DNA from: Escherichia coli
Lineage (GTDB): Bacteria > Pseudomonadota > Gammaproteobacteria > Enterobacterales > Enterobacteriaceae
DNA: 64,000 bases
Reading direction: 5' to 3' (one strand)
NCBI RefSeq assembly: GCF_030384885.1
Contig: NZ_CP128613.1
A program made the translations under genes and the position numbers. Under the pieces are notes generated by a model that was not told the DNA's origin, ran no database searches, and saw nothing but the letters and a program-made list of their open reading frames with translations. This document shows positions 11,737-12,072 of the stretch, in pieces (the stretch's first letter is position 1; each line of letters opens with the position of its first letter).

Positions 11737-11877
11737 TTCGGGAGTTACACAAGTCGTCATAATGCTGGTTATAATTTTCGGCAAAGGGCATGGACGATTT
11801 CTTTCCGTCATTCTGTATATTGCTTACCTTCCCTAATTTCTCCAACCGTTAGTTGGAGAAATTAGATGAGTCGTAAA

Positions 11878-12072
11878 TCATGAATAAACCCCTTGCTCTA
11901 TTCGAAAAATGAGCATGGCAACTTTCAACACCCCCTCTTCTGAGTCCATTATCTCAGAGGGCGTTTTCCACTGTAATGCTCTGTTTGGTTCATTGCACCA
12001 GTTTAATGCTGCACTTTCGTTACCTTCAAAAAGATCAATAGCCTTTTGAAGAACATCATTTTTTGTCAGCAT
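11878..12072 (-). pseudogene. Orphan fragment resembling the C-terminal toxin-binding domain of Xre-type (ParS/MbcA-like, DUF2384) antitoxins
   Basis: 64-aa ORF; ...NWCNEPNRALQWKTPSEIMDSEEGVLKVAMLIFRIEQGVYS fits the DUF2384-type pattern; no N-terminal HTH and no adjacent toxin ORF. Confidence 0.35.

Follow-up and report, generated by a model that had tools for sequence, protein, structure and literature searches.

The 64,000-nucleotide stretch of Escherichia coli DNA analysed here (hereafter the window) carries beside dif a 64-aa ORF that we consider likely to be an orphaned, neutrally evolving DUF2384 gene, the second gene of an HTH/DUF2384 unit left behind in the wreck of a GInt-type integrase island. 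The initial annotation had described the locus as the scar of a decayed toxin-antitoxin (TA) locus. A decayed locus does lie beside dif, but the decay appears to have hit the regulatory module in the border region of a GInt-type integrase island, and its reading as a TA operon is unsupported. The interpretation thus shifts from a TA-like scar to the putative stump of an integrase-borne defence island. The ORF itself is best viewed as an ordinary, already annotated and dispensable decaying passenger that matters little for biology at large, and the island context on this side of dif is mildly useful for mapping E. coli defence hotspots.

The ORF (11878-12072, minus strand) is an intact stand-alone DUF2384 gene running from ATG to TGA, and its product has the same sequence as RefSeq WP_000956368.1, a protein to which PGAP gives the name 'MbcA/ParS/Xre antitoxin family protein'. 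The Pfam profile PF09722 (Xre_MbcA_ParS_C) matches it over positions 2-51 of 51 (E = 1e-10, 41.9 bits against a gathering cut-off of 24.5 bits), and the NCBIfam profile NF049845 (Xre_ParS_antitoxin) is matched in its C-terminal half only (positions 55-112 of 112, 53.8 bits against a cut-off of 90). All signature residues of the domain are kept (F14, G16, W24, P28, R30, L32, P37, G46, R56, and G60). The AlphaFold2 model, computed with 21 homologues as input, consists of four helices (pLDDT 94.5), and the 13 top-ranked Foldseek hits against the PDB comprise only antitoxins whose structures were determined together with RES or ART-type toxins. Structures matched in this search include VPA0769, Pseudomonas putida Xre, ParS, NatR, and MbcA, with VPA0769 (8gug_B) as the best match (TMq 0.86, rmsd 1.1 Å, 33% identity). 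A sequence profile search of the PDB agrees, with 8gug_B found at 2e-11 in addition to Xre, ParS, and MbcA. The initial annotation had suggested that the end of the ORF fits the toxin-binding domain of Xre-type antitoxins, and the agreement of Pfam, NCBIfam, and the predicted fold confirms that the ORF encodes a complete Xre/MbcA/ParS toxin-binding domain. Both this domain family and the mobile-element type discussed below are known, and the protein is already annotated in RefSeq.

The ORF had also been regarded as a fragment, and this part of the earlier description does not hold. Almost all close homologues are 57-74 aa long and come from E. coli, Shigella, and Pectobacterium; the Pectobacterium homologue (78% identity) is likewise 64 aa. 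Besides the length, the ORF in the window and the Pectobacterium copy have in common the ATG and a Shine-Dalgarno-like AGGTG (12079-12083, minus strand, read directly), located 6 nt upstream of the ATG and within the 3' end of the HTH gene described below. Stand-alone DUF2384 versions of 60-80 aa are numerous among 1.8 billion representative proteins searched with HMMER, beside the usual two-domain antitoxins of 100-210 aa. The native protein is thus 64 aa long in both E. coli and Pectobacterium. The HTH is encoded by a separate, overlapping gene. The polypeptide consists of the domain only and lacks an HTH; nor does a toxin gene adjoin it in the window, where 141 nt lead to the convergent ginD. 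In both respects, the earlier observation was correct. Toxin remnants, which it had proposed to look for, did not emerge: a Pfam scan of these 141 nt and of ten small ORFs in the 11659-13004 interval gave no match, and phmmer with a RES toxin as query detected no RES-like segment in the six-frame translation of the window.

Related islands carry the HTH on a gene of its own. In MB64, whose DNA is 93% identical to the window, in PSS-08-2, and in Pectobacterium brasiliense, a separate 110-aa Xre-family HTH gene precedes the 64-aa gene, and its 3' end overlaps the ATG of the 64-aa ORF by 17 nt (ATGCTGACAAAAAATGA). The 110-aa protein matches the PADLOC Control_protein profile PDLC03667 (restriction-modification) near end to end (E = 5e-26). 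Its family comprises widespread stand-alone controller-like proteins of 101-117 aa, mostly without a DUF2384 neighbour. In Vibrio cholerae (Tn7-like elements) and Serratia (integrase islands), members of the family stand divergent to the gene for a VspR_N/VspR_C protein, and a DUF2384 gene is absent from these loci. The E. coli module encodes a VspR-like regulator of 186 aa that shares 32% identity with a Pectobacterium VspR-domain protein (E = 2e-24); homologues in Pectobacterium, Serratia, and Vibrio carry the precomputed domains PF27213/PF27192 (VspR_N/VspR_C). The intergenic region between the HTH and VspR-like genes has its own CTTAG/CTAAG dyads. Pectobacterium furthermore has another free-standing DUF2384 protein, encoded behind its VspR-like regulator gene.

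The overlap of the two genes bears on an alternative origin, namely that the ORF is the C-terminal fragment of a two-domain Xre antitoxin whose HTH and RES or ART toxin were lost during TA decay. An A6 run lies in the overlap, and removal of one base would fuse both frames. When one A was removed from this run and the conceptual HTH+DUF2384 fusion was used as query against 5.8 billion proteins, however, the search gave 543 matches, none of whose top 120 is fused; these 120 are stand-alone proteins of 94-140 aa (most 101-117), nearly all of the HTH_3/HTH_19 type. The fusion also lifts the NF049845 score by 0.6 bit only, and we therefore reject a frameshift or fusion origin. Ancestry of the domain is a point in favour of the fragment reading: it is nearest to Xre-RES antitoxins, its best structural matches all being antitoxins complexed with RES or ART toxins. 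P0152 (147 aa), its closest relative of the two-domain kind with 56% identity across the domain, has a RES-domain gene (PF08808, E = 9e-31) after it, a pair that served as the positive control for a toxin partner. The locus around the ORF is also visibly decayed. Yet the HTH comes from a different, stand-alone controller-like family whose members mostly lack a DUF2384 neighbour, and the ORF shares its length, ATG, and Shine-Dalgarno sequence with Pectobacterium. No RES, ParT, or MbcT-like gene stands beside the HTH/DUF2384 pair in the intact relatives inspected (including MB64, PSS-08-2, and Pectobacterium), where the pair is always convergent with ginD, and the window holds no detectable toxin remnant. 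We regard the fragment reading, already weakened by these results, as unlikely. An ancient origin of the 64-aa domain from an Xre-RES antitoxin is nevertheless conceivable because P0152 has a RES partner.

The preferred reading, an HTH/DUF2384 unit in a GInt-type island, draws on the organization of relatives. The module follows a four-gene operon in MB64, PSJ-12, TC24, EC21Z-063, H9Ecoli, 1517k, and Pectobacterium. The operon encodes proteins of 466, 516, 788, and 144 aa; PF00589 matches the first two, and profile scans detected no domain in the ~788-aa and ~144-aa proteins. It lies to the right of dif in MB64, PSJ-12, TC24, and EC21Z-063, starting 0.1-0.2 kb from the site, and hipA is located immediately to the left in MB64, PSJ-12, and EC21Z-063. 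The cargo varies by strain and includes retron Ec78, CBASS, ABC-three-component (ABC-3C), Hachiman, and a Gabija-like pair, and the variable part starts directly after the ginD-like gene or its palindrome. A ginABCD operon is made up of two tyrosine recombinases, a protein with a recombinase fold but no catalytic residues, and a small fourth protein. GInts have ginABCD at their 5' end and cargo from the ginD stop onwards (Bardaji et al. 2017, PMC5385486); the islands of the relatives show the corresponding site-specific insertion and cargo start after the fourth gene. The operon order also fits GInts and not SEs (PMC10214605), and GInts were reported there for 7.5% of the replicons of Escherichia and 39.5% of those of Pectobacterium. 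Since the gene order (integrase, integrase, ~788 aa, ~144 aa) matches ginABCD, we class these islands as GInt-type, an assignment by architecture that takes in gene order, protein sizes, and integrase domains. The site to the right of dif appears to hold GInt-type islands repeatedly, with differing anti-phage cargo and a shared controller/VspR-like module.

The window contains what appears to be a severely reduced copy of such an island. As the initial annotation had stated, the ORF lies next to dif: the exact 28-nt E. coli site (XerC arm, central region, and XerD arm) is present at 11263-11290 on the plus strand (28/28 match, found in 0 of 100 shuffles). A second dif-like site with up to eight mismatches is absent from the window, and a Xer-dependent element to the right of dif was rejected on this basis. 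A remnant of the native right flank of dif (11291-11337, unstranded) is joined to codon 4 of ginD; its first ~27 nt resemble the right flank of dif in EC21Z-063 and UM146, and homology to the MB64 island begins at 11338. We interpret this junction as a deletion scar at which the left end of the island and ginABC were lost, and remnants of ginA, ginB, and ginC were found nowhere in the window. Excision as a circular intermediate, which in GInts depends on ginABCD, is not possible for this remnant because it has no integrases. The ginD-like gene is itself a pseudogene (11296-11762, plus strand) with a replaced N-terminus and a frameshift near its 3' end: tblastn with the MB64 GinD-like protein aligns aa 4-132 at 11338-11724 (97.7%) and, in a different frame, aa 132-144 at 11721-11759. 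The same gene is labelled 'frameshifted' by PGAP in strain 2013C-4282, which shares the architecture of the window. The left side of dif concerns hipBA, which had been mentioned as lying nearby. It is indeed located directly across dif in related genomes without a prophage, and in the window a tandem filamentous prophage fills that side, but hipBA is a neighbour unrelated to the locus.

Beyond the 64-aa ORF, the regulatory genes are broken as well. A 3' remnant of the HTH controller gene (aa 65-110) occupies 12056-12205 on the minus strand; tblastn with the MB64 HTH protein aligns it at 12196-12059 (95.7%), and blastn places the breakpoint at 12187. From there, an internal deletion joins it to the 3' remnant of the VspR-like regulator gene (12187-12419, plus strand; blastn and tblastn), which retains the C-terminal ~95 codons of the 186-aa protein (aa 91-186 at 12129-12416 in tblastn); the blastn match covers 12187-12593 against positions 7479-7887 of the MB64 locus (82%). 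A hairpin with a T-run resembling a terminator (12463-12479, minus strand, detected by a consensus scan only) lies between the ORF and the cargo gene. The latter (12992-14425, minus strand) encodes 477 aa with an N-terminal domain of no known kind and C-terminal LPX-type leucine-rich repeats (Pfam LRR_4, LRR_1, and LRR_8; no NEL domain), and alleles in other strains encode 508 and 568 aa. Beyond this LRR gene, 2.4 kb from the first HTH fragment, blastn and tblastn identify a second one, consisting of the 5' part of an HTH controller gene (aa 1-49) with 32 nt of its upstream region (14636-14847, minus strand). Its ORF part spans 14636-14815 (minus strand; aa 1-49 at 14815-14669 in tblastn), the upstream region 14816-14847, and positions 14670-14847 match 6908-7085 of the MB64 locus at 95.5% in blastn. 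The order of the HTH and VspR-like fragments takes two or more deletions to explain; these probably affected two modules in tandem, and the 5' remnant is probably left from the second module.

Substitution patterns were compared for the ORF, the HTH gene, and ginD. Between E. coli and Pectobacterium, dN/dS of the 64-aa ORF is 1.0 for the copy in the window (4 synonymous and 16 non-synonymous substitutions) and 1.6-2.0 for other E. coli copies; with at most 20 substitutions in 64 codons, these values are compatible with neutral as well as diversifying evolution. The corresponding values are 0.14-0.30 for the overlapping HTH gene in all pairs and 0.05 for ginD between MB64 and TC24. Four of the eight other copies that we read base by base are pseudogenes: in H9Ecoli, EC21Z-063, 1517k, and module 1 of PSS-08-2, the ORF is disrupted by in-frame stops or frameshifts or has lost its ATG, and all four keep an intact 110-aa HTH gene next to it. 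Insertion sequences split the ORF in DCE7. The HTH/64-aa region is carried by 266 E. coli genomes. A sample of 40 evenly spaced rows from the 271 E. coli records bearing the module contains 11 with a PGAP call for the ORF, all at least 95.9% identical to MB64. The 64-aa gene is therefore pseudogenised in most E. coli copies of the module, and the HTH gene is conserved. A dN/dS of about 1, together with pseudogene copies in which the HTH gene is kept, indicates that the 64-aa gene is dispensable and decaying throughout E. coli, although the copy in the window is intact.

Still, the copy in the window has complete signature residues, a good Shine-Dalgarno sequence, and a confidently predicted fold, so that the ORF could function if transcribed from elsewhere. 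It might then be a working orphan antitoxin or anti-defence factor directed against NAD-targeting toxins of the RES, ParT, MbcT, or NatT type that are encoded elsewhere, by the host or by competing elements. The location of the ORF in phage-defence islands would fit such a role, as would a dN/dS of at least 1 if it reflects diversifying selection. These points are set against the pseudogenisation of the ORF in most E. coli module copies next to intact neighbours, and against its situation in the window, where it lacks an intact upstream gene, no sigma-70-like site is predicted just upstream of it, and the terminator-like site precedes it. A candidate target toxin was also not found in the window. 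A literature search on DUF2384 in connection with VspR or defence regulators found nothing relevant and gave this idea no support. A working orphan antitoxin is hence improbable in our view, and the ORF in the window is probably a complete but idle gene that is presumably silent.

The second conspicuous feature of the locus is a perfect inverted repeat (11833-11865, unstranded), which lies 12 nt beyond the stop of the ORF, between convergent ORFs. The palindrome noticed initially is real, with fully complementary arms of 14 nt (11833-11846 and 11852-11865) rather than 12, and a 5-nt loop. No match occurred in 100 dinucleotide-preserving shuffles, and the predicted hairpin is stable on both strands (plus-strand dG -21.6 kcal/mol, minus-strand dG -24.5 kcal/mol; z about -6). 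The palindrome was found in 52 of 5426 complete E. coli genomes, 51 of which have a single copy, and among 100,044 species-representative genomes related sequence is restricted to Escherichia whittamii, the other 15 matches being unrelated. With one copy in the window and one per genome in 51 of the 52 carriers, it is not a dispersed REP or MITE repeat. It is located in a segment of ~70 nt that follows ginD in one Escherichia island subfamily. In TC24 and PSJ-12, the palindrome likewise follows ginD, the cargo is CBASS, and no DUF2384 gene is present; conversely, it is absent from Pectobacterium and from module 1 of PSS-08-2, although ginD leads directly to the ORF region there, and short gaps between ginD and the ORF imply its absence in H9Ecoli, 1517k, and EC21Z. 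As it travels with ginD, with or without the ORF, the palindrome is not a feature of the antitoxin-like gene. It had been counted as part of the TA scar, which its company with ginD in TC24 and PSJ-12 contradicts; its distribution places it at the 3' end of the gin core in a single subfamily, independent of the 64-aa ORF.

The palindrome most likely works as a stem-loop at the 3' end of RNA where two transcription units converge. A canonical terminator was rejected, since neither strand has a T-tract after the stem and a consensus scan for intrinsic terminators did not flag the palindrome. Also rejected was an operator of the HTH protein, as no half-site occurs in the HTH/VspR-like intergenic region. 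The arms in TC24 and PSJ-12 have changed in step (AATTTATCCAAC...GTTGGATAAATT), a compensatory C:G to A:T exchange that leaves 12 bp perfectly paired. This single compensatory change could also stem from selection on a dyad binding site or from template-switch 'correction' of a quasi-palindrome. The former possibility leads to the view that the sequence is a dyad site for protein binding or recombination (by GinD, the integrases, or at a cargo-exchange junction) instead of an RNA hairpin. Islands that differ in cargo lose their homology ~8 nt past the palindrome, and the symmetrical alteration of the half-sites, the missing U-tract, and the confinement to one island family, in single copy in all but one carrier, point in the same direction. 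However, similar half-sites are absent from the HTH/VspR-like intergenic region and from the vicinity of the island ends in the sequences examined, and many islands of the same family (those of Pectobacterium, PSS-08-2 module 1, H9Ecoli, 1517k, and EC21Z) do without the palindrome, which is thus not essential for recombination. We assign a dyad site a low probability and retain the stem-loop.

Taken together, these observations suggest the following picture. In intact islands, the unit consists of the 110-aa controller-like HTH gene and the stand-alone DUF2384 gene, divergent from the VspR-like regulator gene and placed immediately after the gin operon, with variable anti-phage cargo beyond the module. 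The 64-aa protein may be translated by coupling to the HTH gene and may act as a detachable partner-binding subunit of the HTH regulator, the pair forming a two-chain equivalent of an Xre-DUF2384 antitoxin without an encoded toxin. The palindrome is a separate element, a hairpin predicted to be stable, located where the gin core ends on its 3' side. The island in the window seems to have been wrecked by the loss of its left end and ginABC, the frameshift in ginD, and the truncation and joining of the HTH and VspR-like genes, with the second HTH fragment left 2.4 kb away. The ORF would thereby have lost its upstream partner and presumably its promoter, and the terminator-like site at 12463-12479 would limit read-through into it. 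More far-reaching, and very unlikely in our estimation, is the scenario in which, in GInt-type and perhaps other defence islands, the controller HTH and the free DUF2384 protein are a toxin-less, two-chain derivative of Xre-RES antitoxins that serves as a cargo sensor or anti-repressor switch or as an antidote in trans to NAD-targeting toxins, with the hairpin marking the point of cargo exchange.

Several known systems resemble parts of this locus. The antitoxins of Xre-RES systems (P. putida Xre-RES, 6GW6/9R35; V. parahaemolyticus VPA0769-VPA0770, 8GUG), ParS, MbcA, and NatR share the PF09722/DUF2384 domain with the 64-aa ORF (sequence E = 1e-10, predicted-fold TMq 0.70-0.86), and, as in the Xre-RES antitoxins, this domain is encoded straight after an Xre-type HTH. 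Unlike these antitoxins, the locus splits HTH and DUF2384 between two overlapping genes, its HTH belongs to the HTH_3 controller type instead of PF20432 (Xre-like HTH), the relatives inspected have neither a RES nor an ART toxin gene next to the pair, and the 64-aa gene evolves neutrally, as far as its few substitutions indicate, and is often a pseudogene. The 110-aa partner resembles C proteins and HTH regulators of defence islands (PADLOC Control_protein; CapH-like), given its near end-to-end match to Control_protein, and it shares with C-protein-type regulators the divergent second regulator, the intergenic dyad repeats, and the adjoining defence cargo; C proteins, in contrast, have no DUF2384 companion. 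A further parallel concerns VspR, the repressor of the V. cholerae VSP-1 island. The divergent partner of the HTH gene in relatives carries VspR_N and VspR_C as VspR does, whereas the window keeps only the C-terminal ~95 codons. Finally, the relatives' islands resemble in layout the GInts of Bardaji et al. (PMC5385486), with two tyrosine recombinases, a large protein in which no domain was detected, and a small protein of ~145 aa. The passages of this paper and of PMC10214605 used for the comparison make no mention of a dif-adjacent target or of an HTH/VspR-like/DUF2384 module, features that the islands described here combine with the GInt-type gene order. Compared with the full GInts of PMC5385486, the window keeps the frameshifted ginD only.

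The regulatory module, consisting of the controller-like HTH gene and the gene for the 64-aa stand-alone DUF2384 protein, and the integrase core of these islands seem to have different histories. Synonymous divergence between E. coli and Pectobacterium is only about 0.1 for the module, whereas the adjacent ginD is saturated (comparison of the E. coli loci L002 and L013 with P. brasiliense L009), which suggests that inter-island transfer of the module is more recent than that of the integrase core. In the P. brasiliense locus, a gene for a VspR-domain regulator is followed by one encoding a second DUF2384 protein (L009 4668-5670; 107 aa, 39% identity to the 64-aa protein), and thus both divergent regulators there have a free toxin-binding-domain companion. 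This second gene is absent from the E. coli islands. Between the HTH and VspR-like genes of strain MB64 lie two C-box-like dyads, CTTAGA-TTG-TCTAAG and ACTTAG-CAATC-CTAAGT (L002 7085-7125), which probably serve as operators for the controller-like HTH protein. In the window, this intergenic region is truncated at 14847, leaving only its few first bases.

Two repeat-protein genes accompany the remnants of the module. The first (12992-14425, minus strand) encodes a 477-aa protein with C-terminal LPX-type leucine-rich repeats according to Pfam, and no function was assigned to its N-terminal region of approximately 230 aa. The repeat number differs by strain, giving proteins of 477, 508, and 568 aa; one allele is named "NEL-type E3 ubiquitin ligase domain-containing" by PGAP, and the Pfam search found no NEL domain in the protein encoded in the window. 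The second (15118-17082, plus strand) adjoins the second HTH fragment and encodes a 654-aa ankyrin-repeat protein. In near-identical strains, the stretch from the ankyrin gene to the fimbrial operon contains additional pseudogene fragments annotated by PGAP, of HTH, IS481, and hydrolase genes.

The XerC side of dif is occupied by a filamentous (inovirus-like) prophage of approximately 8.6 kb, present in two tandem copies (1-11262) that encode replication protein II/X, coat and attachment proteins, Zot, and a secretin. The repeat period is 8575 bp, with 100% identity between 8576-11276 and 1-2701. A perfect dif is found only at 11263-11290; the junction between the copies (2688-2715) is a hybrid dif/attP site, GGTGCGCATAATGT|CAACGCGTTATGTTGA. 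The tandem prophage is a Xer-exploiting element, and in this genome it lies between hipBA and dif.

In the searched collection, coverage of the first 24 kb (1-24000) stays below 80% for every complete E. coli genome, the best matches (UM146 and others) reaching approximately 95.8% identity over 68%–69%. The island remnant by itself is 99.9% identical to strain 2013C-4282. The source genome joins prophage and island remnant in a combination not found in this collection.

GInt-type islands with a four-gene integrase operon were repeatedly found 0.1–0.2 kb to the right of dif (L002, L013, L014, L016, and L019, all E. coli loci). Their anti-phage cargo varies (retron Ec78, CBASS, ABC-three-component, and Hachiman systems), and some islands are present as tandem modules (strain PSS-08-2). 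The site to the right of dif looks like a dif-adjacent defence hotspot.
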